Source: Leptogorgia sarmentosa
Lineage: Eukaryota
Direction: 5' to 3'
Length of the DNA stretch: 64,000 nt
Assembly (NCBI GenBank): GCA_964658305.1
Contig: OZ210885.1
Location: forward strand, 5,952,001 to 6,016,000
Under the pieces are notes generated by a model. The model searched no databases. It saw only the letters and a program-made list of their open reading frames with translations, and was not told the origin of the DNA. This document shows positions 2,522 to 63,797 of this stretch, in pieces. A program made the position numbers and the translations under genes. Numbering within the stretch: position 1 is the stretch's first letter; every line of letters begins with the position of its first letter.

Positions 2522-2623
2522 ATATTTTTTAACTCCGAACCTTTCCTCCCAAATTCCTGTGTTTTTCCAGTTTTTACTTTTAAATTAATTATTTTTGGTA
2601 TGTTATACCTTAATAAGCGTTGT

Positions 2624-2695
2624 AGCAGGGTGGCGCAGTGGAAGCGTGCTGGGCCCATAACCCAGAGGTCAGTGGATCGAAACCACTTCCTGCTA
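2624..2695 (+). tRNA. Initiator tRNA-Met(CAT)
   Basis: Same as 353-424. Confidence 0.95.
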
Positions 2696-2791
2696 ATCAT
2701 GAGACCCAATTCAACAAAAGTTAACATCTCTTTTCTCTTAATTTCTGGAGAAACAAGTGTAATATTTGAACTCAATTCAGTGTCTCAGTCA

Positions 2792-2881
2792 GCTCTCCTG
2801 GCCCAGTCGGTTAGTGCGTCGTTACTTATAAACAGTGCAGAAGTATATGCGAGGTCGAGGGTTCAATCCCCTCCGAGAGCA
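2792..2881 (+). pseudogene. Degenerate terminal tRNA-Ile(TAT) copy
   Basis: GCTCTCC acceptor mismatch, extra T in anticodon stem, 1-nt loss in the variable region. Confidence 0.7.
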
Positions 2882-2999
2882 ATGTTTTTAACCCCTCAAC
2901 ATTGTCTCCCGAAATCGTGCTTTTTTGAATTATTTCCTGCTAATTATGAGCAAAATGACATCCTATTCAACAAAAATTAACTTCTCTTAATTTTTGTTA

Positions 3000-12770: not shown

Positions 12771-14414
12771 TCAAATGTACTCATCATCTTCATCATATTC
12801 ATTGTCATCATGATAGTCAACGGATGAATTGTTTTCACCGACATCAAAATCATCGTTGTCATCGTCGCGATCTTCGTCGGGATTATCATCGTCGTCGGAA
12901 TAATCATCTTTATCGCCGATTATCATCTTATCTTCGTCAGAATCCTCATCTTCGTCGGGATCCCCATCTTCGTCACCATCCCCATCTACGTTTGGATCCT
13001 CATCTTCGTCGAAATCCTCATTTTCGTCGGGATCCCCATCTTCGTCGGAATCCTCATCTTCGTCGGGATCCCCATCTTCGTCGGGATCCTCATCTTCGTC
13101 GGAATCCTCATTTTCGTCGGAATCCTCATCTTCGTCACCATCCCCATCTACGTTTGGATCCTCATCTTCGTCGGAATCCTCATTTTCGTCGGAATCCTCA
13201 TCTTCGTCGGGATCCCAATCTTCGTCGGAGTCCTCATCTTCGTCGGGATCCTCATCTTCATCGGAATAATCATCTTTATCGTCAATTATCATCTTATCTT
13301 CGTCGGGATCCCCATCTTCGTCACCATCCCCATCTTCGTTGGAATCCTCATCTTCGTCGGAATCCTCATCTTCGTCGCAATCTTCTTCTTCGTCGGGATC
13401 CTCATCTTCATCGGATTGCTCGTCTATTCCCGAAAATGTAACTGAGGTGTCATTGTAAAAACTATCATTTTCATCTTCTTCGGCAGAATAATGTTTGTAG
13501 TCATCTGGATTGTCATTGCCAGTAACGTTACCTCCGGAGGAAAAGATACTTCCAAGAGAGGAAAAGATCGTTTCGTCTCCAGACCTAGAACCCAATTCGA
13601 ATTTTTTCTCATTGACATAAACCCAACCCAAAGCTTCACAAGCATAAGGCCTGTCATCAATGTTACGACTGATTAATTTTGAAACAAACAGTCGAGCATC
13701 GGAGTCATCAAGGTTCTTTAAGTTTACTGAGTCACCTTTCAAAATATTTACCATGCGTTCATACAAATGCCCGAACGGATGTTCACCTTTGCTCAAGATG
13801 AAGTGAGCTATCATACCAGCTACCTGAACGTCAGATTTTTTCTTAAATCGACCTTTTCCTCCTTTCCCTAGGGTTTCGATCACTTCTGAAGGCATCCAAC
13901 CTCGAGTTCCACTTGCATTAGTCAGGACTGTCGTTTCATCTTCATTGAGAATACGGCTTATCCCAAAGTCTGCCAGTCTCATGTTATTTTTTATATCAAC
14001 GAGTACATTGGATGGCTTCAGGTCTCTATGCAATATACCTTTACTATGGAGAAATTGAAGACCAGTCAAGATTTCTTTTATCATTCGATGACTATTTGCT
14101 TCCACATATTTTAAATCTTGAGAAAGAATGTGATCGTGCAACGTTTCTTCGCAAAGATCAACAATGAGGTACATGAAGGTGTTGTCCTTGATGAAACTTT
14201 GGTAGCTGACAATAAATGGTGATTTTTTAGTGTTAATCAGTTTTAAGATTTTTTTCTCATTTTCAGCCATCTTTTTAGCCGTTGCTATCAACATTCTTTT
14301 TACAGCCACTTCACTGCCATCTTGCATGATACCCACGTAAACGGAAGTGCCCATAGATCCAGTTCCGAGGGAAAAGAATTCAGTCGTCGCAACACGTTTT
14401 ACTGGTGGTCCAAC
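12771..14414 (-). CDS. IRE1/RNase L-like Ser/Thr kinase domain plus long acidic repeat tail (terminal exon)
   Basis: GTGSMGTSVY, VAVK, HRDLKPSN, DFG, GTRGW, SDVQVAG, GEHPFG; phase-0 acceptor TATTAG at 14415; no KEN RNase domain. Confidence 0.88.
   Translation of the reverse strand, partial: VGPPVKRVATTEFFSLGTGSMGTSVYVGIMQDGSEVAVKRMLIATAKKMAENEKKILKLINTKKSPFIVSYQSFIKDNTFMYLIVDLCEETLHDHILSQDLKYVEANSHRMIKEILTGLQFLHSKGILHRDLKPSNVLVDIKNNMRLADFGISRILNEDETTVLTNASGTRGWMPSEVIETLGKGGKGRFKKKSDVQVAGMIAHFILSKGEHPFGHLYERMVNILKGDSVNLKNLDDSDARLFVSKLISRNIDDRPYACEALGWVYVNEKKFELGSRSGDETIFSSLGSIFSSGGNVTGNDNPDDYKHYSAEEDENDSFYNDTSVTFSGIDEQSDEDEDPDEEEDCDEDEDSDEDEDSNEDGDGDEDGDPDEDKMIIDDKDDYSDEDEDPDEDEDSDEDWDPDEDEDSDENEDSDEDEDPNVDGDGDEDEDSDENEDSDEDEDPDEDGDPDEDEDSDEDGDPDENEDFDEDEDPNVDGDGDEDGDPDEDEDSDEDKMIIGDKDDYSDDDDNPDEDRDDDNDDFDVGENNSSVDYHDDNEYDEDDEYI
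12800..13420 (-). repeat. Coding 18-bp minisatellite encoding (D[PS]DED[EG])n
   Basis: Units such as GATCCCGACGAAGATGAG repeated in frame, with larger internal duplications. Confidence 0.9.
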
Positions 14415-37100: not shown

Positions 37101-37780
37101 GGTTATCATACTCGGGATGAGGTGATATCAGTTTTATCGACATTGGTGATATCGTCCCTCAAGCGATAAAACTGATATCACCTCATCCCTCATAATGATA
37201 ACCTCTACATATATAATACGTTGAAACGAAAATGAAACGCATCGGAAGTACTTCCATTGTCATGGGAAAGTTTTGTTTCAAAGTAAAAAGTAAATGCCTG
37301 TGGACATGCATGGTTAGACATTAATAAATGTTGCTTCGAGCCAAAGTACATGTACAGTATCAGATATTTTGTAGTTTCAGGGAGAAAATTCTGCCAAAAA
37401 TGAAATTATGTGTATTTCCTCATATTTAGATAGAAGAACACAAGTATGTAGAGTAAATAATGTCACCTCATCATCCAAATACGTATCATGCGGTGTTCCA
37501 CAAGGGTCTAACTTGGGCCCTTTATTATTCCTTTTATATGTAAATGACTTGCCAAATTGCCTAAATAAATCTATGCCTGCTATGTATGCGGATGATACTA
37601 ACCTATCTGTGACGGGAACCTCAGCTACTGATGTAGAGATGAAATTAAATTGTGAGTTAGAATTAGTACATGATTGGCTAGTTGCAAATAAATTAACTCT
37701 GAATGTTGAGAAGACCGAATATATGATCATTGGATCATATAAGAAGCTTAGCAACATTCAGAACCAGAGTGAAATTAAAA

Positions 37781-38688
37781 CTAGGAGTTACTATCGCAAG
37801 GAAATGTGCTGCCGTTGCGCTCAAACTTTATAATCCCGGCTGGGTTATAGAATACCTGTCCACTTTTGAAACAGTGACTTGTTATCATAATACGATGATA
37901 CGAAGTCAAAATGATCACGTAATGTAATGTATCCGAGTTTTTAAAAAGCCTGGGCAAGATACATTTTTTTGTAATACGATGACACGAAGTGTGAAATTGA
38001 TATGCCCGATTATTCAGAAAGCAGCGTGTGACAGCCTTCGTTCTTCGTGTACGGTCATACGAAGTGAAAATTATTACCGATTAAGTTTATCACGTATATA
38101 TCTCGTTATTTAATCGCAAGCTCAACATAATAATTAAAAATGCGATTCAGTGCGCATATTGTGTTTATGTCCCGTTCTTTGAAAAGCAACAGCACGCCAG
38201 TTAGGATGAAGGTTTACTGTTAGGGTTAGTGTTTACTATACTATTAGTAATAGCATAGTAAACACTAACCCTAACAGTCTATTAGGGCTAGCATTCTGAA
38301 CATTGCTTGCATCATTGATGTGTGATCGCCATAAATACCAAATTACCCAACCACAACGCATAAAACATTAGCACAATCTTGCATCCGTATGAAACGCTTT
38401 TGTAAAAACCTTTCGATTCTTGACGCACATGGAGATGCGTGCCGCGTGCGCAATACAATATCTTGTTTACGTACTTCAGGCTTAATTATTCTGACCGCTC
38501 CCCTCTTTTAACAAACGTCCCTGAAGCCTAATTATGCCCCCGGATACGACAAACATCTTTATGGACAGACAGACACAAGATCTCGATCTCGGCAATACAT
38601 AACTCGCGCGAAAGACTGGGTCGAGTAGACTCTGGGGAAACCACCGCGTGTCAAGAATAGTGTGCTGCCTCGCTACGCTCGGCAGCAA
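37781..38688 (-). mobile_element. Helentron/Helitron2-type non-autonomous element (HINE/DINE-1-like)
   Basis: Empty site in the paralogous LINE (GAAATTAAAA|TAAAGC) shows no TSD; minus strand starts TT-GCTGCC..GGCAGC hairpin, has (GTCT)n, 3' subTIR CGGCAGCA, ends CTAG|T. Confidence 0.75.
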
Positions 38689-39265
38689 TAAAGCTTGGAG
38701 GTAAGGAAATTACCCGCACAAACGCTACCAAAAGTTTAGGGGTTATAATTGATGAGCACTTAAGGTGAAAAGAACAAATTGATAGTATCAGCACCAAGGT
38801 GTCAAGAGCTATTGGAATTATTAGACGCGTAAAAAAATATGTTTCACAAGATACGTTAGAGCTAATGTATTGTTCCTTAGTTCTCCCGTATTTTGATTAT
38901 TGTTCTCTTGTCTGGGATAATTGTAGTCAGACGTTAAAAGATAAAGTACAAAAGTTACAAAACAGAGCGGCAAGAGTTATAACTGCAGATAATTATGATA
39001 TTCGATCGAGTGACATTCTCAAAAAGTTAGGATGGAACAATCTCCAGGATAGACGAAACTCGCAAACTATCAATTATGTTACACAGGCTCTTTTTAAAAA
39101 ATGTCCTGAAGGGATTAATCAAATGTTTCATGTTAGTGATAATGACAACTATAATCTTCGGAGCAATGACTTGGTGCTGGGGCTATCAAAACCAAATACA
39201 AATGCAATGAAAAGATCCTTTAGTTATGCGGCCGCCAAAATCTGGAATTCGCAAAGTAAAACTAA

Positions 39266-39386
39266 GGCCTAGGTCAAACGTCGAACTTTTCATGTGCCGA
39301 ACCCTAATGTTAATGAGCAAAGTTCTTTGTTTGAGCCCATTTGCATTAGGTTCGGCACATGAAAAGTTCGACGTTTGACCTAGGCC
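39266..39386. mobile_element. 121-bp PIF/Harbinger-like MITE
   Basis: GGCCTAGG...CCTAGGCC termini; TAA TSD confirmed by the empty site ACTAAGAGAG in the full LINE. Confidence 0.88.
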
Positions 39387-41250
39387 TAAGAGAGTCGAGA
39401 TAATTAGTAGCGTTAATTAGAAACTGTAGTTAAGTAGTGTGTATATTATATAGTTTGTTTAAATTTTTATAGTAAGCCAAACGTATAGATTTGTAAGTAG
39501 TCGTAAATACACGGCCCTTTGAAAATCAGCACTTATTTTTTGTACATTTTTCAGCTGAAAGGCTACCGTGTTTAAATATTTTTAAATAAATAAATAAATA
39601 AATAAATGTGATATTTCGACGATTGCGCGAAACCGTGGAATTGCACAATGTCTGCATGATGAAAGTATATAGACTACAAGAAATACCGAATCTCCTACTC
39701 AATACTTGCCCTTACTAGTCGGGCACATTTATATATCCAGATGATCTCGTATTCGTGTTACAGCCAATCAGCGCTCAGAAAGGGTTGCCCGAATAGAAAC
39801 CATTTTGCTATATTCACACGATTATATCTTTCGTCATTCTGTACGAAACTACATGAAATTTTGTAATTATGTTTGTTTATGAGAACTATAGCTCTGACAA
39901 AAATATGGAATCGAAATAAAGTATATTATGAGAGATATTCAGTTGTTTCGGTCGAAAAATGGATTTCTATTTGACAGCTAGTCCCAGTCCTTTTCCGTGT
40001 ATCGAGATCACCTGGATAAATGAATAAATAAAAATTTCAATTCGATTGAAAAATGTCAATCGATTAGAACAACTGAGAATCATTTCAATCTTTGTAAAGA
40101 TTTATTATTCTAAGCCATATTGCTCGAATTTCGTCCGCGCGGAAATAACAGACCAAAGCTTCGCTTTGCTGACATTTGCTGGCTGAAGTCATGGTCGAAC
40201 TACAAGAAATGCTGCAAAAGGTTTTTGCCCGAAATCATCCTCAGACTGGAAGGTTAGCGTTTCTCTTTTTTATTCATCTCGTCAAATTACTTCTTGTAGA
40301 AATATGTAGTGTGCTAGCATACTTTTAAAGCTGTTTGCCGTGTCAGCCAGGGTAGGAAGAATTGTAGTGTCAACCAAAGTAAAGGTGTGAAATGGGAATT
40401 ACATCCTGTGCTGTGCAAGGAGACTAAACTTTAGTACACTAATGTGCAAGACTTTTGCCCTTGACTACTATAAAATTGTCTGACACTAACCAGAGTCATA
40501 CTCTTTGGCTTGGAAAGTGTTTGCTAAAGTATAGAAAGGTGCATGAACCAGGTTTAAATGTGAATGAAAGACATGGAGATAGTTAGGTTAATTTAACATT
40601 TGCTGGACTCCCCTGGTCAAGTGGTATCTAAAGTAAAGCTATCTGTTATTAATTAGCAGAGTAAGCATATAAGGTGCTGTAGTACTACTTAGTGGGAGTA
40701 CTTGTAATACTACTTTTGTATTTACTTGGATAACCAAGTAAATGCACAACTGGGTGGTTAAAGGCAGTGATAATTAATACATGCAGAAATTTGTACCACA
40801 ACCAGGGCCTTTTTGAAGGATTTTTCAATGGGTGGCCAAACACAAAAAAGGACTTTAGTGAAGGATGGAAATATAATTATAAAATAGGAAGAGCGGAAAG
40901 GAAAGAAGAATAATTACAAATTAATAAAGAATGTGTAAGGAAATATACATTTAAGGGGGTCTGGTCAGAAAATTTTTGGATTTTTGAGCTCCCTAGGGCC
41001 TAGACTTGATTTCCTTCCAGACAGGAGGAACGCAAATTCCTCTAGTGGGGGCCAACAAAGGAGGTGGGGGGGGGGGGGGTGGGAGGGCTTTGGCCCCTTC
41101 AGCTTATATGTTAAAAAAAGTCAATTTATTGCGTAACATATTACGACATTTGCAAACAGGTGTAAAGAATGCATCTATAGTTCCAAAAATTTCTAAATGT
41201 GGGATCTTGTTTCTTATTTTCTATAATACTGTACATATTTCTTTTCCGTA

Positions 41251-41582: not shown

Positions 41583-43285
41583 ATTGTGACCATATGAAGT
41601 TATGTTTTATTGAATGTCAGTATAACGTTTCGCTATAACGTTTTCTTTCACTCGCAGAATCATTTATTCCAGTAATAGCAATAAGTTCATTTCCAGTAGG
41701 CTACATTGTTAAAAAGAATATTAATGAATATTTGTTTATGGTCTATATATATGTGCGCATAGAAAACTTATGCACATAAATGCGCCACGGTTAAACTAAA
41801 TTTTATAAGTAAATGTGAGCATTAATCATAAGGTGGTTATATCCCTTTTCAAAATGATTTTTTCAAAATTTGGGTTTTAGTGTTTTAGATATTTCAAGTA
41901 TTGAAAATTCAGAATCTGCAATTATTTTAGTTGATTTCTTTAGTTTTGAACGCGAAAAATGCTTTTGAAGTGACCATAGTGCATAATTTTCCCCTTAGTA
42001 ACGCCTTAGCAACGAGTTTTGGCCCAAAAAAAACGCAAAAAAACATAAACAAATGAATAAATAAATGTTTTTGAAGTTTCTACTTTTGATGTATGTGATC
42101 TAGGAATCATTTTGAAAGCTGCAATTTGATTGGCCATCTATAAACAGCGCTATGACAACGCGAATTTGCATTATTCATAGGCCTACTTTGGGGGCCAATG
42201 TCGCCTAATGTCGCTGCGACAATGGGCGACATTTGGCGACATTGGGGATTTTCAAAGAAAATTCCTTGCAACATTAGGCAACATTAGGCGACATAGGGCG
42301 ACGGTTGGCGACATTAGGTTAGATAGATGGACAGTATTAGAAATATTTGTCAGCCCAGGGGCTGAATTGGGGGCCACGCCGCAATGACCTGGGGTGCTTA
42401 CGGACAATAATTGACAAATTTGAATATTCCCATGATCTCCTAGCCTGGAGACCCACTACTATTCTAATAAAATACAAAAAATAGTAACTCTGAATAACAT
42501 TGTTTATATTGTACAGATGTTTGGACTTCAGCAATAATACAAGGAAGCAAAATGTTATTAGGAGTTAATATTCTTTTATGTGAGTTAATGAACATAAAAA
42601 TCAAAAAATGTCAGTTAATGAGCAGCTATTAATAAATAGCAAAGCAAGTAAATGCAAATCAGCAAGTATTTCAATACTGCAATTCATAATTGGTCAATTA
42701 ATCAAGTTGTTTAATATAGTTATACTCAGCTTATTGAAAAGTATAAACAGATAATAATTAATGCATTATATATTGCACATATTGCCCATGGAAGTATTAT
42801 TTCTTTACCTTACTAAATAACTGTCAACTATTCATTGATATTGTCATATAACTCATATTGAACTATTTAATCAGCATTCAGCCATCAGGGTCACCCTTGT
42901 TTGCTGTAAACGGACGCTTTGTAAGACCTTCCGGGATATGCAGTTGCCTCTAGGAAGTTTACCAAATGATGTATCGTTGGATATGAAAAGCATATCAGTG
43001 ATTTAATCGTATTTATTATCATTGAAAGAAACAAAGTCAATTTCATATTCTAAAAAGTCGTGTTTTCGCCATATTAGCCTGCGGACAGGCAAAATTGTTT
43101 CCATAAATGAATAGTAACATTCAATTTACACTTTTCGGCAAACAGATTACTGTGACCACTGACTGTGACGTAAGTGACGTTAAATTTCACAACGCGTATT
43201 AATTTACATATTTTTCGTAACAAGAACGCAATGGGTTAGTTCCTCTTCGTTATAGTCGGCAGGTTTTAATCTCGTTCGTTTGAAA

Positions 43286-46200
43286 ATGACGGACTCGTCG
43301 TCTTCGTCCTCACCGATTTATATGTCTAGCGACAATGAATCTGGTGAAAGCGAAGCACATGAAATGCCTTCCTGCTCTTCCAAGCGCAAGCACAGACGTT
43401 GCCGATCGCCCTCGCGTCATTCCCATAAAAAGGCCAACAAAAGGTCAAAACGATCATCTTCGCCGCAAGGAAGCAAAAAAAAGAAGAAAAAGAGTCGGCG
43501 TGACAATCGACATGGTGGTCCGAAAAAACCCAAAAAATCGGCAAAAAATAGTGACGCCAATAGGCCCAATACTGATGAGGACAGTGACGCTAGGCCAAAG
43601 AGTGCAAAGACGCGTGATTCTAATAGGGAATCAAATTGCACAATTACAGATGCCAATGAAGGTAATGTTGAAATATGGATCTTTAAAAAAAGCAAAGTTT
43701 ACATGGTTTTAAAAGATGAACCCTATACAGTTTCAGTATCTGACATAACCTTACGGTCCTTGCCTGCAGTGGGATGCTCAATTGAGGGAACATTAATTAT
43801 TCTCTAATCCCTATAGCGCTTTCTTATAAGTTTAGTCCTCTCTGGAAAAAATGACCAGAAACTGCAAAAGAAAGGGGAATGTTTGTAATATTGCTGTAGT
43901 AATACTTCTCACAGTTTTTCCATTTTTGCAGTTTTAAAAAGATTGTGGAGTGTAAGAACTACAAAATCTAGTACCTATAAATTTCTACAAGCAACCAGTG
44001 CCATGACTACAAAGGAACTCATTGGCAAAGTAGCAAAGTTGTTTAATCTCAAGGAAAATTTTATTTCCCTAACATTTGATTTCCAACCGGACAATTGTAC
44101 TGAGAAGCTAAACATCACAATAGAAGAAGGGGATGAAGAGAGTTACCAACATGCACTCACAGTTCTTCCTAATTACTCTCGAGTAACTGTGGAAATGAGT
44201 ATTCAAAGGATGAAAGAGATAAGTATATCTGGTGAAAGAATGTATCGCAGGAAGGAAGTTGTTGCTGAGGAAATAAAACGCGAAATGGGACTACATGATG
44301 ACCAAGGGAAAGGAAAGAAAGGGTACATGGATGCTAAATGGACAGCTAAATGTGACACACTCATGGAACATGATTCCAGGTTTCTCTTTGAATATGACAA
44401 GCTGCAAAGTGGTGTGGAGTTAGCATTTGGAGATAAAAGGTATCTTTTAAATCCATTCCAGATCATATGTCCTATTTGTGGGCAAGTAAAATGCTTGGGA
44501 AACATGAACCAACCTGTAGCATTGGTCCAACATATTACTACTCAGCATTCTACAGAAGCCGCTGTAGCATGTACAAAGCGATTGAAAGCATGGGGGCAAA
44601 ATAATTTTATAACTGCCCCACAAATGGACGGTGAGGCACTTTTGCCTGAAGGTCTCTTTAATTTAACTTCACTACTGTCAACGCCACGGGTCAGGAATGC
44701 CACCCTGGCCCGTGACATTGTTTGAGGGGTGCTTGTCACTTTGATAAATTAGACATGGTAATTTCTTTAAAGTTAATGAGAAATTCAGCTCATGAAACAT
44801 ATATTACTTATACTGTTTGTTTCTCAGCAACTTGTCCAAAATAACTACGTAGTTGGTAAATAGTCATTGTATAATTGTAAAGTACTTGACAAAATGGAGA
44901 GGATCGAAGTCAATACTATACAGTAGATGTACACAAAACTGCATAGTAAAATATTACATGCTATTTACTGCTATATTTTACACCAAGTGTCACCTTTTAC
45001 TATTACCATGCAAATTTAAAGATAAGGTTGACAAGTGCCCCTTAACAATGAGCTATCAAGGAAGGAAACTACTTAACCTATTGGCTTAAACTAGCCATAG
45101 ATTCAGGCATAATATCGAGAGAGCATGTACTATATCAATCTGTGGATGCATTTATGACAGAACAACTTCACCAGCCGCATCCTGTGTTAGATTGGACTGC
45201 ATGGCCAACTTTGTACAGTTTTTGTGAGTCTCTTTTTGGTCTTGGGACAAGGAGAGGGTATCGTTTTTTTCTTGGAAAGAAACGTTTTGGTTATAAAAAT
45301 CAATCAACTATTGTACCACCACTTGAGTACTGTTTCCCTGGACCTTCAGTTAGCACCTTAGACCTGAAGAAATCTCCACCCATATACAATAATGGCCCAC
45401 ATTTGAACAATTTAATGTTATTGCTAACCATTCTGGACACTCTTGATGGAATACCAATGTATCAGCAAAATGGTGTCAAGAGGTATTTTACCTGTATTCA
45501 TTATGATGGAATGCCTTTAAATGTTGGAACATTCCCAAGGCAGGAGAATGTGGAAACTTTTTTTGATGGAATAGTGCCTGCAATAAAACTAGATCAAATG
45601 GAAGATTTGTACAGAAATGGGAATGCAGCTGTACATCAATACATCAAAGAAAACTGCGAGTGGATAAGTGAAGTTAAGGAGTATGATATGATGGATGCCT
45701 CTGGCACTGTCAACGTTAATGTTTTTACGTCGTTTGGAACAGCTGCTGGAAATTCAGACAGTGTCAAAGCGGAACTTAAAGAGGCACTTCAGTGTTTGCA
45801 ATCATGTACAAACTGCATATTATCAAATAATGCCGGAACTTGTAAATTCACCTCTTTGGACAAGCCTTGTGAACGATGCGATCAGCAGAAGAGTACAACA
45901 AACGGATCCCCATGTGTAAGTGCAAAGATACTTCACATTTCATCTGACCAGGCGCCATCACAACGAAAGGCACACATGGAACTGAATGAAGGTGTACCAA
46001 GAGACATATTAGATCCAGGCTACATTCAATATGGATTTGGGCTGCTGCACTTTGCCAAAAATTGCATTTCCTCATTGCGGCACTACAGATTGACCAACAT
46101 GTCTGGGACATTTTATATTGGACTTATGACTGCAGTTTGGGCATCTAATACCACTGAAGCTTCAAAAATGAAGAAAGCAGCCCCTGCTGCTGTGTTTTCG

Positions 46201-49038
46201 TTCAGAGATGCGCATAGCGATGAAACAGGATATAAGTCTGTTTGCAAGGAGATGGAAGAAGTGATGAAGGAAACAGAAGCTATTGTTGCAACACTTGTAC
46301 CTGAACAGTATAAACCAACAGCACGGGAGGCAAAGACCCATGAAATTATTGGTCGACCATTGTATATTACCTGTAACCGCAATGGAGATTTCCTATGGAC
46401 TGGTAAGTTTGAAGTGCAAATCTTCAAACAAGAACTAAGGTTGAAAAGTGACTGAGAAAGTGGTGGTGTTAATTGCTGTGCACCATATTGGTACACTGAA
46501 AGATACTGAAACATGTTAGAAACCAACTACTAACTCAATCATTTTTCACACCTGGGTAGATCATTTCTATTGTCTTTCAAAATCCTAAATACATTTGTCT
46601 TTCTGCAATTTTTGATATGTTAACTTGTTGTTAGAAGCAATTTTTGTGATATGTTTTTCTTGTTCGATAGATGCAGAATATGAGTTTGTCGGAATGGGAG
46701 ACAGACATGTACCTACAAAGTGCTTATCATTAGGAAAATGGGATGACCCTGGTAGGTTCAACTCTACTTTCTCAACTTACGAGAACAAAAGTATGTATTG
46801 TAAAACACTGTAATTGCATCAAAGGCATCATTCTCCCATCCGTCAGGAATTGATGTTATGAAGATCGAACCTGGGAAGAGTGAACAAGCCTTTGTTTGTG
46901 ATAAAGGTAATTCGTGCATACGGTTCATCACAAATGTACATTCCTTCCATGGCGATAAGTTTATTGGCACAGTCAAGATCCATGGTATCCCTTTGTCATG
47001 GAAACCTGAGGCTTTAACTGTCATTCCCAATTCTCGCACAGTTGCAGTTACTGAGTCCACAAAAATCTTCCTGCTGAGTCTAGACCATTCCCTCACCTCA
47101 GGTAAAATGCACCAAGTTATTGATACCTTGAATGTACCATGTGGACTTTGTGTATCTCCAACAACACCAGATTCACTACTTGTGGCAGATGGGAATGATG
47201 TTTTGGAAATTAATTTGAACACCCAAAGTGTTGCTATTGTAGCCCAAAACTTTCGCAAGGCATTTGACATCTCTGTTGATTCCAATGGAACTGTTGCAGT
47301 TACAGATGTAATATCACACAAGTTGCATATTCTTTCATCTAAGAAAGCTGGTCAAATGTTGGAATTACAGTCAACCATTGGCTCAATAAATGGCTGTCTT
47401 GATGGTCCTGCATCTAAAGCACTCCTATCTGAACCCACTGGTGTATGCTTTGACATGGACACAGCAATTGTTTGCTGCTTTGGTGGCAGATCAAATGGAT
47501 GTATTAAACTCCATACCACTGTCACATTTGCTTGTGAGATGATGGAAAGCATAAGGAAAATCTATGATGCAATTGGGTTTCTTCCTAAAGCAGAACAAAA
47601 TAGATTAAGACAGCAACAGTCAAAAATTGTGATTCCATTCCACACAGGCCTTCATAATCTTATTGATTCCCTTGCATACTTACAAGGTATCACCACTAAA
47701 CGGGGAGAGTACCTTAATAGTGCAACAGCTGGTCCTGAGGGTACAGTGTATCATATTTCCTTGAAAGGTTTTGCTGAGGTTGTAAAGGCGTTAGAAACAC
47801 ATGTGCAAGTTTTTAAAATGGTTGGTATGGCTGACACAGTAGACAATATCAATTTGTATGCTTTGCTCAACGAATCCACGAAAGAACATGGCTTTGCCAA
47901 GCACAAGCAATCTGGCCAGTACAGACACCCAACAAAGAAACAGTATGTCCAAAGCAAAGGGCAACATGAAATTGAAACAATCAAGAAAACTTGCAAATGT
48001 CCACATTCTTATCACACTAACAGATTTAGTGCTTACCAACCAACACATGCCTCCAACTTGGCATCAACACTAGTTGTTAGTCAGTACAAGAAATGGAGTC
48101 AGCAGTTTCAACCAGAAGACATGGCCCCCACAGCAGAGATGAAGAAAAGAATGAAAAAGGCAAGAATGCTTAACGTCCTAACAAAAGCAAATCCAACTCA
48201 AAATATCAGAGACCTATATCGATACAAATGTGGATATGGCCCATGCGTTGTTTTCCAAAAGGACGCTCTGTTAGATGATGGCAATAATGATTCTCGCCAT
48301 TACCCCGATTTTGAGAAACTTATGAAGGAATTGGAAGTAAGAAGAGGTGAAACTGTTCCAACAGACAGACGGGTAGAGAGTGGAGATTACCTGTTTGTAC
48401 CTGGTGATATTGTTATCATAAATCCTGGTGTCAATAATGAGATCCCTAGTGCAGACAAGTGGTGGCTTCTGCAAGTAAACAAAGCCCATCATTCAACTAA
48501 AACAGGAAATGCTTGTGTTGTGTATGGATTTTGGCTTGATGAGCAGCTGGAAAGAAAAGATGATTGTAGAGTATTTTCTCTTATGTCAAACGCAGTAAAA
48601 GTATACTTTGGCAGTGTTGTAAAGAATGCAGGGACACCACTCCTTATCCCAGCAAGTGAAATAACGACAGGATGGCAAGGTGGACAAGTGAGTTACGCAT
48701 TCTCAAACGAATACTGTTCCAAGTTAGACCACTTATCAGACCAGCACCGCCTTTCACTGGAAAGCAACAACATCGACACAGAAGAATCTGATTCTGCAGA
48801 GGAAGATGAGATTGATGAAAGTGACAATGATGACAATGACGAAGAACATGATGTGGAGCTGACCTTGTTGACCAGAAACAGAGTTATCGGGAATTCAGAA
48901 GGAAACCGAATATTTTCATACAAAGATCTGGCTGGGGTTGGCAGTAGTGGTAGAAGGGTGCAACGAAGACAGATATCTCAAGTGGAAAAAAATGATGACC
49001 TGGTATCTGCACAAAGGGACAATCCTGAATTTCACTAA
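43286..49038 (+). CDS. Multi-exon ~1600-aa transposase: exons ~43286-43661, 43932-44630, 45101-46402, 46671-49038 (frame break near 46750-46860)
   Basis: Phase-compatible GT-AG junctions; FPGPSVSTL, HYDGMPL, SSDQAPSQRK, LLHFAKNCISSL, LNESTKEHGF in P/THAP9 order; FSHPSGI, WKPEAL, VPCGL, SEPTGV NHL-type repeats. Confidence 0.75.
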
Positions 49039-50202
49039 TTGTATTGTACACATAAGAATGACAAACTTTTTAATAATAATTTAGGCATGGGTGGTATGGG
49101 TGATATTTAGACATTTAAATTTGTTGAGTTCCAATGTATACCTCATTGTTGTTGCATCTCAAAAAAAAATTTTTCTTGAATGATATCTTCGTTACTTGTA
49201 GTGCTATAACTGCTGTTCTGTTTTGCTCACTTTTGCCTGAACTTGCCTGACATTGGTGAAACCCTCATAAAACCGGGAGAGCCTAATCATATTATAATCA
49301 TGATTAGTCATACTCACAGCCACTGGTCATAGCAGCGATTAAGAGGCATTTCCATATTAAAAATTCTGAAACTTAATCTCTAATCCTGATCTAAAACCAA
49401 CCCCAGTTCTAACCCTATTGTTTATTGTATTGGTAATCCTGACTAATCCTAGTGATTATCTTTGGGGTGTAATGATATATGAAAGTGATTCTAAAAACAA
49501 TTACGAGACGAAAGAATTTATCGACAGAAATAGTTAATTATTAAGTTCGGTCCCAATCGCACCATTGCACGGAAATCAATATGGCGGCCAATATGGGCAA
49601 TGTAAATTTCAGGATTTAGCAATTTAAAATGTTCCTGTCTGGCCAATTCGTCACGTATGGTTATGTATGATGTAGGACCACTATAGTTTATAAATGTATT
49701 GACATCCGCAACGGAATCATGTTTGAATGCAGTATGCAGACAGGATGTAAGTGTATTTTGTAAAGCAGTATCCAGTATGTCACACATGGAAGTGATAAAT
49801 ATCTTAAAATTATATGTGAATATATTCTAATTTATTTGGTTTATGCAAATTTCATTTGCAATGCAAATTTCATTTGCATGTTAAACATAAAGTTTTCAGA
49901 CTGCTACAGTGAACTTGCATACATATTTATACCACCTTCATTTGCTATTTGAAAAAGCATTTCACTTTCAAGTCCAAAACTGTTCAAAATAGTAATATGT
50001 AGGTATACTTTGTGGATAGTATATGAGAATGAATAGAGTTTTGATATTTTTTCCATTTCATCGATATATTGACGTTGACGGAATTAGGTTCTAAGGAATG
50101 ACCCCAGGCCCTGGCAAGGAGCTAGGGCTATTACAGCTATAAGTTCAGCTATGTTCTAGTGTTTCTGCTGCACAAAAAAGAAGATCTGTACTATGCTTTG
50201 CA

Positions 50203-52068
50203 TTGATCCAGTTGTTTGAAGCAATCCATCCGAGGATTGTCATGGAGGCAACACGTGTAAATGAGAGCTCTGGTTGTGAAGCTTTATCACAAAATAAAAG
50301 TACATCTGATGAAATAGTAGAGGATTTCCAAATAAAGAAATCCTTGATAGTAACAGAGAAGGGGAAATTCAAGTGGATTGGAACGTTTGAAAACCTAATA
50401 AAGCTGATGAAAGAGCTGACTGGCGAAGTTGGTTGGAATTCGCCCGGTGGCGACTGTAAAATGTTGAAAACTGACGGGGTCGAAGTGCGATGGTATTCCA
50501 CGAGTAATTCTCTGACTATAAATGGTGAGGCTAGGGAAGAAATGAAAGCTCAGCTTCGAGTCATTACAAATATAGATCATCTTCAAAATAAAGTATTTGA
50601 CGAGAATGCCCTAGGCGAAGGCGTCGATTATAATGGCCGAACATGTTTGGCGAATTCAACCGAACAGTCTGATGATTATAAAATTGAATCACTATTATAT
50701 GTCATTCAGAGACTTGAAGAGAACTTTCAACTGAAGTTTAGTGATCTTAAGACCGAAATTCAAGAAATAAAACGAGATTTACAGCTCGAGCGACCCGTTG
50801 AGAAGAGTATGGCTGCTGAGAATACCTCGATAAACAATAGTGATTTGCTCGTTGGGGAATATATAGAATCTATTAAAAATGAGAACGACAAGCTGAAGAA
50901 AGAAAACACTGTATTACAGGGAGAAATGAACAGTTATAAAATGATTGCATCAGATCTGAACGTAAAAATAGAGGAATTAACGTGCGAGAAAAAAAGCTTG
51001 GTCACTGCAATAAAAATTCTACAAGAAGATCAAACTCAACACAATCAGTGGAATGTCATTAAGAACAGTAAGACAATTAAGCATAACAAAGAAGGTCATG
51101 CTAATAAAGCGAGTGAACAAAGGGTGCAAAGTTCAGCACTGTCTACAAATCGTTATGCAATGTTAAATATCAGCGATACTGAAGAAGATGAATCGTTCAG
51201 CGTTAAAAACAAATCGCGTGAACAACAAACTAAGTCAAACATGGGTGAAGTCGAAACACGTAAAAATGCATCTAAAAATGTTAACGGGGAGAATGATATA
51301 ACAGAGAACGATGACCAAACAACTCAAAAGAGCAAGGAACAAAAGAAAAGCAGCGCGAAGCGTAAAAATAATCGTTCAATTCTAAATATCAGCGATCCTG
51401 AAGAAGATGAACCGTTAAGAGTTAGAATCAAATCGTGTGAACAACAACCTAAGAGTTCAAACATCGGCGAAGGCCAAAGACGTAAAAATGCGTCTAAAAA
51501 TGTTAGCGGGGTGAATGATATATCAGAGAGCGATGATCAAAAGCAAAGCCGCGCCAAGTGTAAAAATAATCCTTCAGTTCTCGTTATGGGAGACTCGATG
51601 CTGAAACATCTATCGCAACAAAAGATTAGCAGATCAACAAACGCTAAAGTGAAAGTCAAGTCCTTTTCAGGGGCTACTATTATCGATATGAAAGACCATG
51701 TAAAACCGGGATTGAGAACAAATCCTGATAACGTTATCCTACACATAGGAACAAACGATATAAGAAGCAAAGAGGCTCCTGTAATTGTTGACCAGCTTGT
51801 CGAATTGTGTGACCAGATTAAGAAGAGCAACCCAAAAACAAAAGTATCAATATCAGAAATCATAAAAAGGGATGATAATGAGGTATTTCAAACAAAAGTT
51901 GATGCGGTAAACAAACTTTTGAAAGTTAATTTTAGTAAATCCCAAGTTAGTGTCTTGGGACACGCTAATATAGATAAAAGAGGTCTAAACAGATATGGAC
52001 TTCATCTTAATCGTTCGGGTACATCTTTGCTAGCCAAGAATCTAATTGAACATATCAAGTGTTTTTGA
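50203..52068 (+). CDS. LINE ORF1 with coiled coil and C-terminal SGNH/GDSL esterase domain (first ATG at 50242)
   Basis: VMGDSM, SFSGAT, HIGTND, GLHLNRSG. Confidence 0.9.
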   Translation: MIQLFEAIHPRIVMEATRVNESSGCEALSQNKSTSDEIVEDFQIKKSLIVTEKGKFKWIGTFENLIKLMKELTGEVGWNSPGGDCKMLKTDGVEVRWYSTSNSLTINGEAREEMKAQLRVITNIDHLQNKVFDENALGEGVDYNGRTCLANSTEQSDDYKIESLLYVIQRLEENFQLKFSDLKTEIQEIKRDLQLERPVEKSMAAENTSINNSDLLVGEYIESIKNENDKLKKENTVLQGEMNSYKMIASDLNVKIEELTCEKKSLVTAIKILQEDQTQHNQWNVIKNSKTIKHNKEGHANKASEQRVQSSALSTNRYAMLNISDTEEDESFSVKNKSREQQTKSNMGEVETRKNASKNVNGENDITENDDQTTQKSKEQKKSSAKRKNNRSILNISDPEEDEPLRVRIKSCEQQPKSSNIGEGQRRKNASKNVSGVNDISESDDQKQSRAKCKNNPSVLVMGDSMLKHLSQQKISRSTNAKVKVKSFSGATIIDMKDHVKPGLRTNPDNVILHIGTNDIRSKEAPVIVDQLVELCDQIKKSNPKTKVSISEIIKRDDNEVFQTKVDAVNKLLKVNFSKSQVSVLGHANIDKRGLNRYGLHLNRSGTSLLAKNLIEHIKCF

Positions 52069-55021
52069 TAATAATTTAGATGCAATTCCAGACTTTGGTG
52101 GGCTTGACCCAACTGTTAATAATTTAATAGCGATTAATAACTTAAATCAAACAGAAATAGTATCAGATAATTCATGTGAAAATGAAAATTTAATCCAGGC
52201 TCAGCTGAAAAAACTTAAAGGTTTCCGTGTAGGCCATTTAAATATTACTTCACTGACGAAACATATAGAACAATTAAGGTTTTACCTTTATGATAAACCG
52301 TTTGATATTTTCAGTATAAATGAGACTAGACTGAATAATAGTATAGATGATAGAGCACAGTTGGAAGGATATAATGTAATTAGGAAAGATCGATCACGTG
52401 AAGGAGGTGGCGTTGCTATATATTACAGGGATCATTTAAATGTTAAAGAGCGCAATGATTTAATCCCTGCTGAAATTGAAGCAATCTGTATTGAAATTTT
52501 CAAACCTAAATTAAAGCCTATACTTGTTACAACCCTGTATAGGCCACCGAATACTCGATCTGAAATATTTGATGTAATTAAACAACTTGTTGAAAACCTA
52601 GATGCGGAAAATAAGGAAACGATTCTGGTGGGTGATTTTAATTGTGATCTGCTGCCAGATAATAAAACCTCCTTTACCAATCGATTAGTTGATATAATAA
52701 ATCTATTTCAACTCACTCAGGTGATTGAGGAACCAACTCGAATCACTTCAGACACGCAAACACTATTGGACCTGTTCATAACCAATAAGCCCGAGAATAT
52801 TATTAATTCTGGGGTTGTGCAATTGGGGATCAGTGACCATAATCTCATATTTGGTTGTAGAAAATTATCTTTGGGTAAAAATCAGCCTAAAATTGTTGAA
52901 ACCAGAAATTATAAGTATTATAAATCTTTTGAGTTTAAGCATGACCTTTTGGTTTCCCTTTCGAATTGTGATTGGGCGTACACTGATAATCCGAATGCAC
53001 TATGGGAACAATTTAGGGACAGGTTCAACGAAGTCGCTGAAATACATGCTCCAATTAGACAAAGGCGAGTCAGAAGTAAATACGCACCTTGGTTAAATAA
53101 TGAGATAAAAAACCTCATGAATTTTCGTGATGTTATGAAAAGGAAAGCTGTAAAAACCAAATCTAGCTTTTATAATGATGCCTATAAAATTGCCAGGAAC
53201 AAATTGAATAAACTTATTGAGAACACTAAAACAAAATATTTCCAGCAGGTTATAAGTGACTCTAAAAATAATTCAAAGGAATTGTGGAGAAATATTAATC
53301 AGATGATCAACAAAAGTTCAAAAACAACGAATGTAACTAGTGTTAAATTTAATGAAAATATAGCGACAGATAGTGGTGATATGGCTGAAATATTTAACAA
53401 TTATTTTACTAAAGTGGGAATAGATTTATCAAAGCAGATTCCTAAAGGTTCCAAAAGGTTCGAAGATTATATAAAACCAGTTAATTGTATCTTTGAGTTC
53501 AAAATAATTTCTGTTGGTGAAGTAGAAGCAGTATTGAATAAACTCAAAACATCCAAGTCGTGTGGACAGGATAAAATACCTTCAACATTATTAAAGGATT
53601 CGTGTGAGATATCTGCCTATTACCTAACATTTATATATAATTGTTCTCTTGCTACTGGTATCTTTCCTGATGATTGGAAAGTTGCCAGAATTTCTCCCAT
53701 TTATAAATCTGGTGATAAGCAAGAGTGTGGAAATTATCGGCCAATATCAGTCTTGTCTGTCGCTGCTAAAGTATTTGAAAAATTGATGAGTGATCAACTA
53801 AATGGCTATTTGAGAAAGGAAAATATTTTGACTAAATCTCAATCAGGATTTAGGAAAGGCCATTCCACCACATCTTCTCTACTTAGCACGACAAACTCTT
53901 GGCTTATTAATATGGATTCTGGCCTAATTAATGGAGTTCTTTTCCTCGATCTCAAAAAGGCATTTGACACAGTTGACCACCAGATTTTAATCAGAAAACT
54001 AGAATTATACGGAATTAGAAATATTGCGCTAGCATTGCTTTCCTCATATTTAGATAGAAGAACACAAGTATGTAGAGTAAATAATGTCACCTCATCATCC
54101 AAATACGTATCATGCGGTGTTCCACAAGGGTCTAACTTGGGCCCTTTATTATTCCTTTTATATGTAAATGACTTGCCAAATTGCCTAAATAAATCTATGC
54201 CTGCTATGTATGCGGATGATACTAACCTATCTGTGACGGGAACCTCAGCTACTGATGTAGAGATGAAATTAAATTGTGAGTTAGAATTAGTACATGATTG
54301 GCTAGTTGCAAATAAATTAACTCTGAATGTTGAGAAGACCGAATATATGATCATTGGATCATATAAGAAGCTTAGCAACATTCAGAACCAGAGTGAAATT
54401 AAAATAAAGCTTGGAGGTAAGGAAATTACCCGCACAAACGCTACCAAAAGTTTAGGGGTTATAATTGACGAGCACTTAAGGTGGAAAGAACAAATTGATA
54501 GTATCAGCACCAAGGTGTCAAGAGCTATTGGAATTATTAGACGCGTAAAAAAATATGTTTCACAAGAAACGTTAGAGCTAATGTATTGTTCCTTAGTTCT
54601 CCCGTATTTTGATTATTGTTCTCTTGTCTGGGATAATTGTAGTCAGACGTTAAAAGATAAAGTACAAAAGTTACAAAACAGAGCGGCAAGAGTTATAACT
54701 GGAGATAATTATGATATTCGATCGAGTGACATTCTCAAAAAGTTAGGATGGAAGAATCTCCAGGATAGACGAAACTCGCAAACTATCAATTATGTTACAC
54801 AGGCTCTTTTTAAAAAATGTCCTGAAGGGATTAATCAAATGTTTCATGTTAGTGATAATGACAACTATAATCTTCGGAGCAATGACTTGGTGCTGGGGCT
54901 ATCAAAACCAAATACAAATGCAATGAAAAGATCCTTTAGTTATGCGGCCGCCAAAATCTGGAATTCGCAAAGTAAAACTAAGAGAGTCGAGATAATTAGT
55001 AGCGTTAGAAATTGTAGTTAA
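52046..55021 (+). CDS. LINE ORF2: APE endonuclease plus reverse transcriptase
   Basis: NETRL, GDFN, SDH; YRPIS, DLKKAFD, GVPQGS, YADD. Confidence 0.96.
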   Translation: MNISSVFDNNLDAIPDFGGLDPTVNNLIAINNLNQTEIVSDNSCENENLIQAQLKKLKGFRVGHLNITSLTKHIEQLRFYLYDKPFDIFSINETRLNNSIDDRAQLEGYNVIRKDRSREGGGVAIYYRDHLNVKERNDLIPAEIEAICIEIFKPKLKPILVTTLYRPPNTRSEIFDVIKQLVENLDAENKETILVGDFNCDLLPDNKTSFTNRLVDIINLFQLTQVIEEPTRITSDTQTLLDLFITNKPENIINSGVVQLGISDHNLIFGCRKLSLGKNQPKIVETRNYKYYKSFEFKHDLLVSLSNCDWAYTDNPNALWEQFRDRFNEVAEIHAPIRQRRVRSKYAPWLNNEIKNLMNFRDVMKRKAVKTKSSFYNDAYKIARNKLNKLIENTKTKYFQQVISDSKNNSKELWRNINQMINKSSKTTNVTSVKFNENIATDSGDMAEIFNNYFTKVGIDLSKQIPKGSKRFEDYIKPVNCIFEFKIISVGEVEAVLNKLKTSKSCGQDKIPSTLLKDSCEISAYYLTFIYNCSLATGIFPDDWKVARISPIYKSGDKQECGNYRPISVLSVAAKVFEKLMSDQLNGYLRKENILTKSQSGFRKGHSTTSSLLSTTNSWLINMDSGLINGVLFLDLKKAFDTVDHQILIRKLELYGIRNIALALLSSYLDRRTQVCRVNNVTSSSKYVSCGVPQGSNLGPLLFLLYVNDLPNCLNKSMPAMYADDTNLSVTGTSATDVEMKLNCELELVHDWLVANKLTLNVEKTEYMIIGSYKKLSNIQNQSEIKIKLGGKEITRTNATKSLGVIIDEHLRWKEQIDSISTKVSRAIGIIRRVKKYVSQETLELMYCSLVLPYFDYCSLVWDNCSQTLKDKVQKLQNRAARVITGDNYDIRSSDILKKLGWKNLQDRRNSQTINYVTQALFKKCPEGINQMFHVSDNDNYNLRSNDLVLGLSKPNTNAMKRSFSYAAAKIWNSQSKTKRVEIISSVRNCS

Positions 55022-56494
55022 GTAGTGTGTATATTATATAGTTTGTTTAAATTTTTATAGTAAGCCTAACGTATAGATATGTAAGTAGTCGTAAATACAC
55101 GGCCCTTTGAAAATCAGCACTTATTATTTGTACATTTTTCAGCTGAAAGGCTACCGTGTTTAAATATTTTTAAATAAATAAATAAATAAATAAAAGGCCA
55201 TGTTTTCAATGGGCTGAGTGCCAGGTAGTCTCGACAGAGAGAAATTGCTAACTTTTAATATATAGCCTAATTATTAAATGTTAGGCATTGCCTTATATAT
55301 ACCAAAAATCAAGAAAGCCTATAAAAATTAACCAATTACTCAAGGATAGGGTAGATATAAGAAGGTAATGCTGGTTGACACTACCTGACATTGGGCAATG
55401 ATGTGCGCTAATAGGCGGCATTGGGTGACAATGGGCGACAATGGGCGACATTAGGCGACATTAGGCGACATTAGGCGACATTGGCCCCCAAAGTAGGCCT
55501 ATTCATAGCGTGCTTACTGATCGATCGAGCGAATTTGCTAGCGAATACTCCGAGATTTCTTTGTAGTTTTTGAGGACTTCCTGTCGTTTTTTGAAATTTC
55601 TTTTATTTTAACATCTTGTTAAAATATTATTTGATATAATAATGGGAAATCCGCAAAATAGAAAGATAAAAAAAGAAGAGAATTCCACCACGAAAGGGAA
55701 ACAAGAAATTCAAAGATGGCGGCCAACCATCTCAGTCATCTCCCCAAAACACGGGGGCTTCCCACACCAAACTTGCTGATTCACAAGACAAATTTGGTGT
55801 GAATCGTCGCGTTACTGACTCCGTCAAAGAAGGCACCGTATTCATGGATGTAGAGGCACTTTTTTTGGTCTTTGATGAAGTACTGAGATGCCTTGACTGT
55901 GGCAACCATATGACATCTCATGTGGATATCAAGAAAAAAAATGGGTTTTCGCATTATATCGTTCTACAATGCAACAATCCTGAATGTGACTGGAAGCATT
56001 GCTTTCATACATCCCAGAAGCAAGGTCACTCATACAATGTAAACACAAGAGCAGTGTTAGCATTCAGGGAGATTGGTCGAGGACACAGTGCAATGGTGAC
56101 ATTCACTAAAGTCATGAACATGCCATCACCACCAACTTCCAGTAACTTCATGAAGATTCAAAACAATAAACTATTGCCTGTTGTGAAGCAATTGGCAAAT
56201 GACAGTATGGTGACTAATGCTACAAATGTCAAAGAAGTTTGTGATAATGATATGGGAGAGTGTGGGATCTCCCTCGATGGAAGTTGGCAAAGACGAGGCC
56301 ATACTTCGCACAATGGTGTTGTTACTGCTATATCATTAGACACAAAGAAATGTCTGGATGTAGAAATCATGTCAGATAAGTGCAAGGCATGCCAGAAATG
56401 GGGAGAGTAAATGACCCTAAATACCCAGAGTGGAAAGCTAACCACAACTGTAAGATTAATCATACTGGGAGCGCAAACAGCATGGAAGCATGAA

Positions 56495-62594: not shown

Positions 62595-62994
62595 TAGTCC
62601 ATACGAGAGAAGATATCAACCAAGGAAATCAAAGTCGAATATTGCTCTACACATGATATGATCGCAGATATCATGACCAAAGCTCTTCCCAAAGACAGAT
62701 TTGAAAAACTGCGAAACCTGTTGAACGTTTGTTCATCATAAACTTGACATGCTTAAACTTTTATATATTAGATGTTGCACTTGGACAATGAACATATCAA
62801 ACACAATTATTAAGTGGGAGTGCTAGAACAATAATAACTGTGTTTGTAGTCCTCCATATATATTTAGATCAGTGGACATCACGTGACACTGCACGCACTG
62901 TGTTTACTCTCTGGTCTTGTTCTGATAAACGTTTTGTTATATATATATATATTATGTTCTGTTTGTATCACAATAAATCTTCGTAATCCTAACA
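62595..62994 (+). mobile_element. Ty1/Copia 3' end: RNase H C-terminus, PPT and 3' LTR (62821-62994)
   Basis: IKVEYCSTHDMIADIMTKALPKDRFEKLR; TTAAGTGGGAG|TG...CA. Confidence 0.8.
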
Positions 62995-63330
62995 AAGGCC
63001 AAAAAGCGAAAGCTCGAAATTTAACACGAAAACCCATGTTGTTTGGTACGATGCGTCCAAGACTGGTAACAACACACTTGAAAACATGCTGCGAAGGATG
63101 ACCGAAAAGGTTGAAATCGTCCCACACCTCGAAAACCACTCTCTGAGGGCAACGACGGTTACTGTGTTGTCTGCTGGCAATATCGAGGCAAGAAAGATCA
63201 AAGCCATCACAGGCCACAAGAGCGATGCCAGCATCGAAAGCTATTGCGAGCGTCCAACGCGTAATCAGTTCAAGCAGATTTCGACAGCGTTAACGTCGTT
63301 CATTCACAGCGACAGAAGTCCAGAATCCCG
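62995..63330 (+). pseudogene. Crypton-type tyrosine recombinase C-terminal remnant
   Basis: NHSLRAT...ITGHKSDASIESY (H-x-x-R, H, Y catalytic motifs). Confidence 0.75.
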
Positions 63331-63797
63331 TCATCAATCTCATCAACTACTCAAAGAAAACCAAAGGCCACCGGCTTCGATTTCTAGTTTTCTATTCTTA
63401 GTTTTTAGGGTGGGATGGATTGAGGGGTTGGGGGTAAAATTTTTGTCATTTCTATTGTATTTGTTCTTTGCATGTCTACACGCCCCTCCTGTAAATCAAC
63501 ATATTTGTTGTGTGAGGCTAGCGTGTATTTTAAATAAATTTGATTGATTGATTGATTAGTGTAGCTCATCCATGTTGCAGCTCCACGTCGACATGCCAAC
63601 GGCAACAGTTGCTGCCAACTAAACAACATGAAAGCTTTTTCACGTCGCTGGGCTTCAGGGGCGGATCTAGGGTTAGTCAGGGCGTAATAAAACACGGGCG
63701 GGGAAACGCGCATATATCACGCTGTTCTATGCGTGATGCGCCTGCGGATTGGCGCGAGCGCGCGTTTTGCGAGAAAATACAAAAAGGACGGCAAAAA

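Follow-up and report, generated by a model that had tools for sequence, protein, structure and literature searches.

A probably P-related DNA transposon in Leptogorgia sarmentosa with a transposase predicted to hold an NHL beta-propeller inside its insertion domain

Can a DNA transposase carry a beta-propeller within its catalytic machinery, and to which superfamily would such an enzyme belong? The question is raised by a 64,000-nucleotide stretch of the Leptogorgia sarmentosa genome (contig OZ210885.1, positions 5,952,001 to 6,016,000; hereafter the window, with positions counted from its first letter), in which a transposase gene lies between two terminal inverted repeats (TIRs) flanked by a target-site duplication (TSD). 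A first-pass annotation had described the locus as a large transposon whose P-element-like transposase carries an NHL propeller in its catalytic domain. In this study, we explored the locus by homologue searches, fold comparison of predicted structures and comparison with sequencing runs. We read it, with a probability of roughly 85%, as a TIR-bounded DNA element, likely of the cut-and-paste type and related to the P element, whose transposase is predicted to fold like P transposase and to enclose a six-bladed NHL propeller within its helical insertion domain.

Structural models were made of a homologue, P0001 from the octocoral Paramuricea clavata, which is 45–50% identical to the window over exons 3–5. 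Its residues 1–1123 were modelled with a predicted local distance difference test score (pLDDT) of 88 and a predicted template-modelling score (pTM) of 0.81. Since fold searches with the whole chain were filled by propellers, the N-terminal half (residues 1–402, pLDDT 92) was modelled separately. The best solved match of this half in Foldseek was the Drosophila P transposase (6P5A/6PE2) at E 1.7e-6, followed by ISCth4 (6e-3), Transib (2e-2) and Hermes (5e-2). Superposition on P transposase gave a Z score of 12.0 at a root-mean-square deviation (rmsd) of 5.5 over 282 aligned residues, with model residues 1–395 lying on P residues 131–427; the next chain reached 7.5, and P transposase was the only one with Z of at least 8 among 48,161 chains. 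The comparison proposed by the first-pass annotation thus favours a P-like DDE transposase, as judged on the homologue. The ESM Atlas points the same way: residues 60–440 of a distant member, P0113, fall beside P-transposase clusters at 0.92/0.90, with all ten best named matches in the P-transposase clan. The whole of P0001 is nearest to a 50-member cluster that is 100% NHL and 34% SAP; no SAP motif was found by Pfam in the open reading frames (ORFs) of the window or in P0001, P0003 and P0004. Sequence searches of the PDB returned NHL and weak Zn2Cys6 chains only, and no transposase. In the P0001 model D134 lies where strand 1 ends and D281 where strand 4 ends, H315 follows strand 5 and E822 lies on a later helix, and in the window every motif cited at the outset was found at its place (D 45505, D 45946, H 46048 and E 47884).

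The model also contains the propeller. Residues ~412–702 of P0001 form a six-bladed NHL fold that superimposes on SOQ1 with Z 32.0 and rmsd 2.1 over 267 aligned residues, and on TRIM71 with Z 31.2, after which helices resume and lead to the helix of E822. Six-bladed NHL folds are shared (Z 27–32) by SOQ1, NHLRC2, TRIM71/Brat and teneurin, where they are domains of host proteins, and the shared fold shows no function. In the window itself an NHL repeat passes the Pfam cut-off (PF01436, E 3.8e-5). The presence of NHL repeats inside the catalytic domain, as first suggested, is thus borne out by homologue model and profile search, while their extent had been underestimated, being ~290 rather than ~250 aa with a start in exon 3, near 46340–46354. 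The GTP-binding domain of P transposase comprises residues 339–528 (PMC10824691, available text), and the residues given as GTP contacts are K385, K400, V401, S409, F443, D444, N447 and D528 (PMC7776569, available text). Because this domain spans 339–528, the alignment runs to residue 427, ~90 residues into it, and helices follow the propeller, we place the propeller inside the insertion domain, between the S409 and F443 contacts. A propeller replacing the insertion domain, as originally envisaged, was rejected, since the model aligns with P transposase as far as residue 427.

Used as a query, the exon 3 protein found 169 representatives at E <=0.001, 104 of them at 1e-10, which range from cnidarians to marine algae. 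Nearest to the window in a tree of 30 rows, built from family members only, was P0004 from Actinia tenebrosa (61% identity over 259 columns). Most homologues are without a name; the named ones, with Aureococcus anophagefferens among them as well as EukProt entries assigned to Pyramimonas and Prorocentrum (possible contaminants), are labelled 'hypothetical' or 'uncharacterized'. Among viral contigs, none of 44 pattern matches to P0001 was confirmed as a relative, and BFVD gave no match at E <=0.001. Conservation was counted in a 94-row alignment with P0001 numbering, in which the rows covering each position vary. The triad is retained in 45/47 (D134), 62/63 (D281) and 16/16 (E822) rows, and H315 in 58/62. 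Between the two Asp residues lie six cysteines, each present in 57–60 of 59–63 rows; a Cys-rich insert had been correctly located there, although as a CxxC...CxxC set of four. Weak matches of this cluster were obtained to the Zn2Cys6 family PF00172 (6 of 94 members, best E 0.013) and, in the PDB, to LEU3, PPR1 and LAC9 (E 0.03–0.9). At the N-terminus, a C2H2 pattern occurs in all nine homologues tested and the THAP pattern in none; the THAP Pfam family has no match in window ORFs or 28 long homologues, and exons 1–2, in which no THAP domain had been seen either, lack the THAP pattern and hold a conserved C2H2 finger in exon 2. Three residues before the conserved His, Gly is found in 49/62 rows, including the window (G(2)H), and Asp in 2/62. 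The distant members P0113 and P0143 combine D(2)H with the propeller and appear, from their sequences, to bridge the family to P. By eye, the C-termini of P0033, P0044, P0053 and P0143 contain further beta-rich segments resembling Tudor/KOW barrels, which suggests variable chromatin-reader tails in several long homologues.

The ends of the element confirm a transposon with perfect TIRs, matching at 35/35 bases, and with the unusual GGCC...GGCC termini noted at first; no further TIR copy occurs within the window. The 10-bp repeats next to both ends are, from their sequence, likely transposase binding sites. Both flanks carry TATTCATA exactly, and the chance of such an 8-mer match at a given place is ~5e-5. 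The first-pass annotation had counted an 8-bp duplication, which stands as one of two solutions: TATTCATA starts with TAT and ends with ATA, so that the ends can be moved outward by one, two or three bases to give duplications of 6, 4 or 2 bp with the same empty site, and because of these near-palindromic edges an 8-bp TSD with GGCC ends and a 6-bp TSD with AGGCC ends fit equally. A second insertion, on one contig of sequencing run X8, is followed on its right flank by TGCTTTAA, and this flank excludes both TAGG ends with a 4-bp TSD and ATAGG ends with a 2-bp TSD, while the 6-bp reading survives. A related element end on the metagenome contig L001 is identical over its first 26+ bases, shares the 10-bp repeats and is preceded by TGTATATA. 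All three independent sites (window, X8 contig and L001) are compatible with an 8-bp T......A target, which is the simplest reading and agrees, as anticipated, with the 7–9 bp of the P family (PMC3698922, available text).

Sixteen sequencing runs were listed, of which 11, from three studies, hold part of the window stretch. Four (X1, X4, X6 and X8) were compared with the window; all data are contigs, and the best run may be the window's own source. Runs X1 and X4 contain an uninterrupted target site with a single TATTCATA. Variant uninterrupted sites, with joints 42180->55508 and 42118->55500 and one or 22 other letters, were observed in X1 and X6; they may be footprints of excision or come from paralogues of the repeat around the element. 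All four runs contain an abundant non-autonomous derivative lacking an internal segment, for which we infer a length of ~2.2 kb if it is also free of the insertion described below. Within the element, many unrelated contigs start or stop at 49348–49389, a piece of another high-copy repeat that is also present in the derivative. These data bear on the idea that a domesticated host gene was captured by an unrelated element owning the TIRs. Such a history would suit the five exons of the gene and the fact that TIRs around the gene are documented for the window copy. However, the gene lies wholly between the TIRs and keeps its full triad, the site exists without the element, and the derivative keeps the ends and drops the gene, so that we consider this origin hardly credible.

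The gene itself comprises five predicted exons with ~1,580 codons, the splice sites being predictions from sequence and homologues alone. Exon 2 matches Ubiquitin_5 at E 0.15, short of the cut-off. Exon 3 covers the helix-turn-helix (HTH), RNase H strands 1–5 with both Asp residues and the His, the first helices of the insertion domain and the first propeller blade, and exon 5 contains a beta-rich C-terminal domain at ~48380–48710. A single multi-exon gene of ~1600 aa had been proposed, which holds for size and organization, but the window copy is probably not intact. At 46800–46801 the window has two letters where three of the four runs have 54, the fourth being without a piece there, and the ~52-bp deletion likely took away the acceptor of intron 4 together with the first part of exon 5. 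No acceptor keeps 46804–46846 in frame, although this stretch is conserved in P0001 and P0004; either the window copy is defective, probably, or the assembly is wrong here. Given the likely loss of the splice site, the window copy is probably inactive.

How is such an element to be classified? P-type ends read CA...TG, and Yuan and Wessler (2011) are reportedly the source for the D(2)H motif. In the available text of PMC3698922 this motif, located after the second Asp, is a trait of the P superfamily. With the P element, THAP9, 1360/Hoppel and Galileo the transposase shares the HTH, the split RNase H domain with its D/D/E triad and, by prediction, a helical insertion domain that follows strand 5 and precedes the E helix, and with the P element also TIRs that are short and perfect (35 bp, against 31 in P), repeated internal binding sites, an 8-bp TSD and a single intron-bearing gene (PMC7776569 and PMC3698922, available text). 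It differs from P by the propeller nested at about P residue 428, the six-Cys cluster between both Asp residues, a C2H2 finger where P has THAP, a G(2)H motif in most members, an extra beta-rich C-terminal domain and a length of ~1,580 versus 751 aa. The ends differ as well, with GGCC and a 3'-terminal C (or T) here against a 3'-terminal G that pairs with GTP in P (PMC7776569, available text). Since THAP, D(2)H (in the window protein), P-type ends and P Pfam models were looked for and not found, we do not file the element as a canonical P element. It is a P-related lineage, and calling it unclassified, as first suggested, is in one sense too strong, because its nearest superfamily is clearly P.

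An assignment to hAT or MuDR, or to a superfamily of its own, is the reading that these absences favour. Elements of the hAT superfamily typically have 8-bp TSDs and (C/T)A ends, and their transposases a C(2)H motif; the 8-bp TSD would thus fit hAT, the G-rich ends MuDR, and hAT has, in its BED finger, a parallel to the C2H2 finger. Hermes (hAT) and ISCth4 (MuDR/IS256) also share the RNase H fold with a helical insertion domain. Their fold matches are, however, much weaker than that of P transposase (Hermes E 5e-2; ISCth4 E 6e-3 and Z 5.5), which on its own leaves room for kinship, the ESM Atlas neighbours are P transposases and two members carry D(2)H. In addition, no Cys precedes the conserved His by three residues in any of 62 rows, and the ends are GGCC. 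We therefore regard a position outside the P branch as very improbable. Academ elements have TAG ends and 3–4 bp TSDs, which would fit the window junction if the ends were moved out by two bases, but the X8 contig (a single observation) reads GGCC-T-G and not GGCC-T-A. KDZ/Zisupton and Plavaka were set aside as well, as no such Pfam match is shown and the fold points to P. RAG1 gives a fold match of Z 5–6 and is Transib-related; its likeness to the present system is one of analogy only, as its partner RAG2 is a protein of its own, of the kelch type and equipped with a PHD finger. RAGL/ProtoRAG was rejected as well, having a separate kelch-PHD RAG2L gene and a 5-bp TSD (PMC7204232, available text), compared with an NHL propeller in the transposase frame set and a TSD of 8 or 6 bp here.

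The P-related lineage could finally be an ordinary P family, already catalogued with its NHL domain noted, for instance in Repbase or Dfam. That it is widespread, with 169 homologues, and present in annotated genomes (Paramuricea, Actinia, Aureococcus) speaks for this, but named homologues are 'hypothetical' or 'uncharacterized' and full-text searches of the literature brought up no paper describing the family, which makes this quite unlikely. As the first-pass annotation had supposed, no group with this architecture was found in the literature searched, whose coverage excludes Repbase Reports, Dfam, supplements and most subscription journals. The available text of PMC6431247, PMC4455052 and PMC5753468 has nothing on an NHL-transposase architecture, and neither NHL nor propeller occurs in PMC10824691.

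Several observations weigh against our reading. The window protein itself was not the modelled chain; the rmsd to P transposase is 5.5–7 Å at a template-modelling (TM) score of 0.40; and the fold match rests on the N-terminal half, the helices after the propeller being known from predicted secondary structure. In the model, the canonical positions of the D/D/E triad are positions in its predicted secondary structure. No P-element Pfam family was matched in window ORFs, in 28 long homologues or in the 25 families shown of 53 for the 94 members, and the window protein has neither THAP nor D(2)H, while the element is without a 3'-terminal G. Both flanks are known for one insertion only, so that 8 and 6 bp both fit. 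The DNA around the element is itself a repeat, adjoining a PF20700 transposase frame, and the uninterrupted sites may be paralogues of this repeat rather than an empty allele. The derivative joint is deeper than the coding part in all four runs (summed depths 1098, 45, 49 and 24 versus ~250–425, 5–7, 0–4 and 0–1), but contig depth is not copy number. Finally, the propeller is the least conserved region, with a mean identity of 19% versus 23–31% elsewhere, as would suit a surface on which constraint is weak or shifting; no ligand is suggested by this pattern.

The last point would also be expected if the propeller were a tolerated passenger of a P-related transposon, captured once in a permissive loop between two insertion-domain helices and without a role in transposition. 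Against a passenger stands its retention in 40 of 41 stored proteins reaching at least 120 aa beyond the N-terminal half (a set that includes near-duplicates, searched with a profile built from 27 of its own members), in lineages only 18–30% identical to each other and spread from cnidarians to algae, with no propeller-less member seen. We consider a mere passenger unlikely.

For the P-related element with its nested propeller, we propose a model in which the N-terminal C2H2 finger and the HTH would bind the 10-bp subterminal repeats and TIRs, and the RNase H site (the three acidic residues named above) would cut the ends and insert them, staggered by 8 bp, at a T......A target. The 2.2-kb derivative could be mobilised in trans by intact copies located at other places in the genome; the window copy itself is probably inactive and later took in the nested element described below. 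The propeller lies where P transposase keeps GTP at the junction of end and target. By analogy to the RAG2 propeller, which assists RAG1 (PMC7204232, available text), it might serve as an accessory surface, built into the enzyme, to which target DNA, flanking DNA or a host chromatin factor binds. This is the role we prefer, although we put its chance somewhat below even. In P transposase, described as unique in its GTP requirement, the insertion domain holds GTP, which forms hydrogen bonds with the 3'-terminal G (PMC7776569, available text). The present element ends in C or T, and, placed by spacing only, the presumed D528 position (three before the catalytic E) is Ser in 11/16 rows, the presumed D444 position is Asp in 9/24 rows and no conserved Asn is found at the presumed N447; GTP use may for these reasons have been lost or altered, for which we see about even odds. 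In the most far-reaching version, the family would be a sister lineage of P that is ancient, widely distributed and so far undescribed, and all three modules facing DNA would have been rebuilt around the P core, with C2H2 in place of THAP, a Zn2Cys6-like cluster in the RNase H domain and a nested NHL propeller that both replaces the GTP cofactor and acts as a RAG2-like partner for end positioning or target choice. Taken as a whole, this version is doubtful.

Table 1. Features of the element and of the insertion it contains, in window positions
Feature	Position	Strand	Basis or remark
Left TSD, TATTCATA	42172..42179	.	exact match to right copy
Left TIR, 35 bp, starts GGCC	42180..42214	+	35/35 bases match right TIR
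Left subterminal 10-bp repeats, core GGCGACATT	42216..42315	+	same repeats in related end L001
Segment absent from non-autonomous derivative	43143..49317	.	joint 43142->49318 plus 9 letters, 4/4 runs
Predicted exon 1: Ser/Lys/Arg-rich low-complexity N-terminus	43286..43661	+	splice sites predicted; no homologue match
Predicted exon 2: weak ubiquitin-like stretch, followed by a part conserved at the N-termini of homologues	43932..44630	+	
C2H2-type zinc-finger motif, in the place of THAP	44468..44548	+	C..C..H..H aligned, window and 14 homologue N-termini
Predicted exon 3, acceptor placed only to within 45053-45107	45053..46402	+	
Six-cysteine cluster between both catalytic Asp	45805..45915	+	Zn2Cys6-like binuclear spacing, weak match
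Six-bladed NHL beta-propeller, ~290 aa, across exons 3, 4 and 5	46340..47523	+	Pfam, homologue model
Predicted exon 4, 27 aa	46671..46751	+	71% identity to P0001
~52-bp deletion in window copy	46799..46802	.	54 letters between in X1, X4, X6
Exon 5: rest of propeller, second helical insertion-domain part, E 47884, helical C-terminal domain, beta-rich C-terminal domain, acidic tail	46804..49038	+	
Nested long interspersed nuclear element (LINE), (AAAT)n tail, not part of transposon	50226..55191	+	two long open frames, LINE-less junction
LINE ORF1, esterase	50143-52068	+	PF13472 E 3e-9
LINE ORF2, endonuclease-reverse transcriptase	52046-55021	+	PF03372, PF00078
Right subterminal 10-bp repeats	55414..55483	+	
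Right TIR, 35 bp, ends GGCC	55465..55499	-	35/35 bases match left TIR
Right TSD, TATTCATA	55500..55507	.	exact match to left copy

The nested element is a LINE, which we take to be CR1/L2-like. It was rejected as a component of the transposon on the basis of a LINE-less junction in X1, where a loose end at 50225 continues as 55192 onward. The transposon was first called large, which is true of the 13.3 kb between its ends, yet ~5 kb of this span is the LINE, unnoticed at that stage, and the element proper measures 8,354 bp, plus the missing 52. At 37415–39606 lie fragments 96–100% identical to the 3' part of the LINE (54039–55194), themselves interrupted; judged by their sequence, the LINE family appears to be recently active. 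Just to the right of the element, at 55670–56410 (+), a PF20700 'Mutator-like' transposase frame was found (E 3e-32); its position suggests that the element landed in the end region of the transposon bearing this frame. Further away, window positions 1–2950 hold a tandem array of ~370-bp units, in which ARAGORN reports five tRNA-Met(CAT) and four unassigned tRNA-like genes. By eye, the frame at 6253–7227 (+) resembles a G-protein-coupled receptor, that at 8658–10403 (-) a RecQ-like helicase, that at 12774–14414 (-) a kinase with an 18-bp proline repeat and that at 62993–63544 (+) a tyrosine-recombinase fragment.

In this lineage a 290-residue propeller lies in the predicted GTP domain, the terminal bases are not those of P and the GTP contacts seem changed. 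This allows one to test whether GTP use is ancestral and required for P-type chemistry, and also whether propeller helpers were recruited by transposases on occasions other than the known one of RAG2. If the most far-reaching version above holds, a six-bladed propeller would have been taken up by a DDE transposase for a second time, independently, and a P-type enzyme would work without GTP. The window copy provides what an assay needs, with defined ends, a target pattern and a non-autonomous derivative, and GGCC-ended repeats with 8-bp TSDs in invertebrate genomes would become classifiable.

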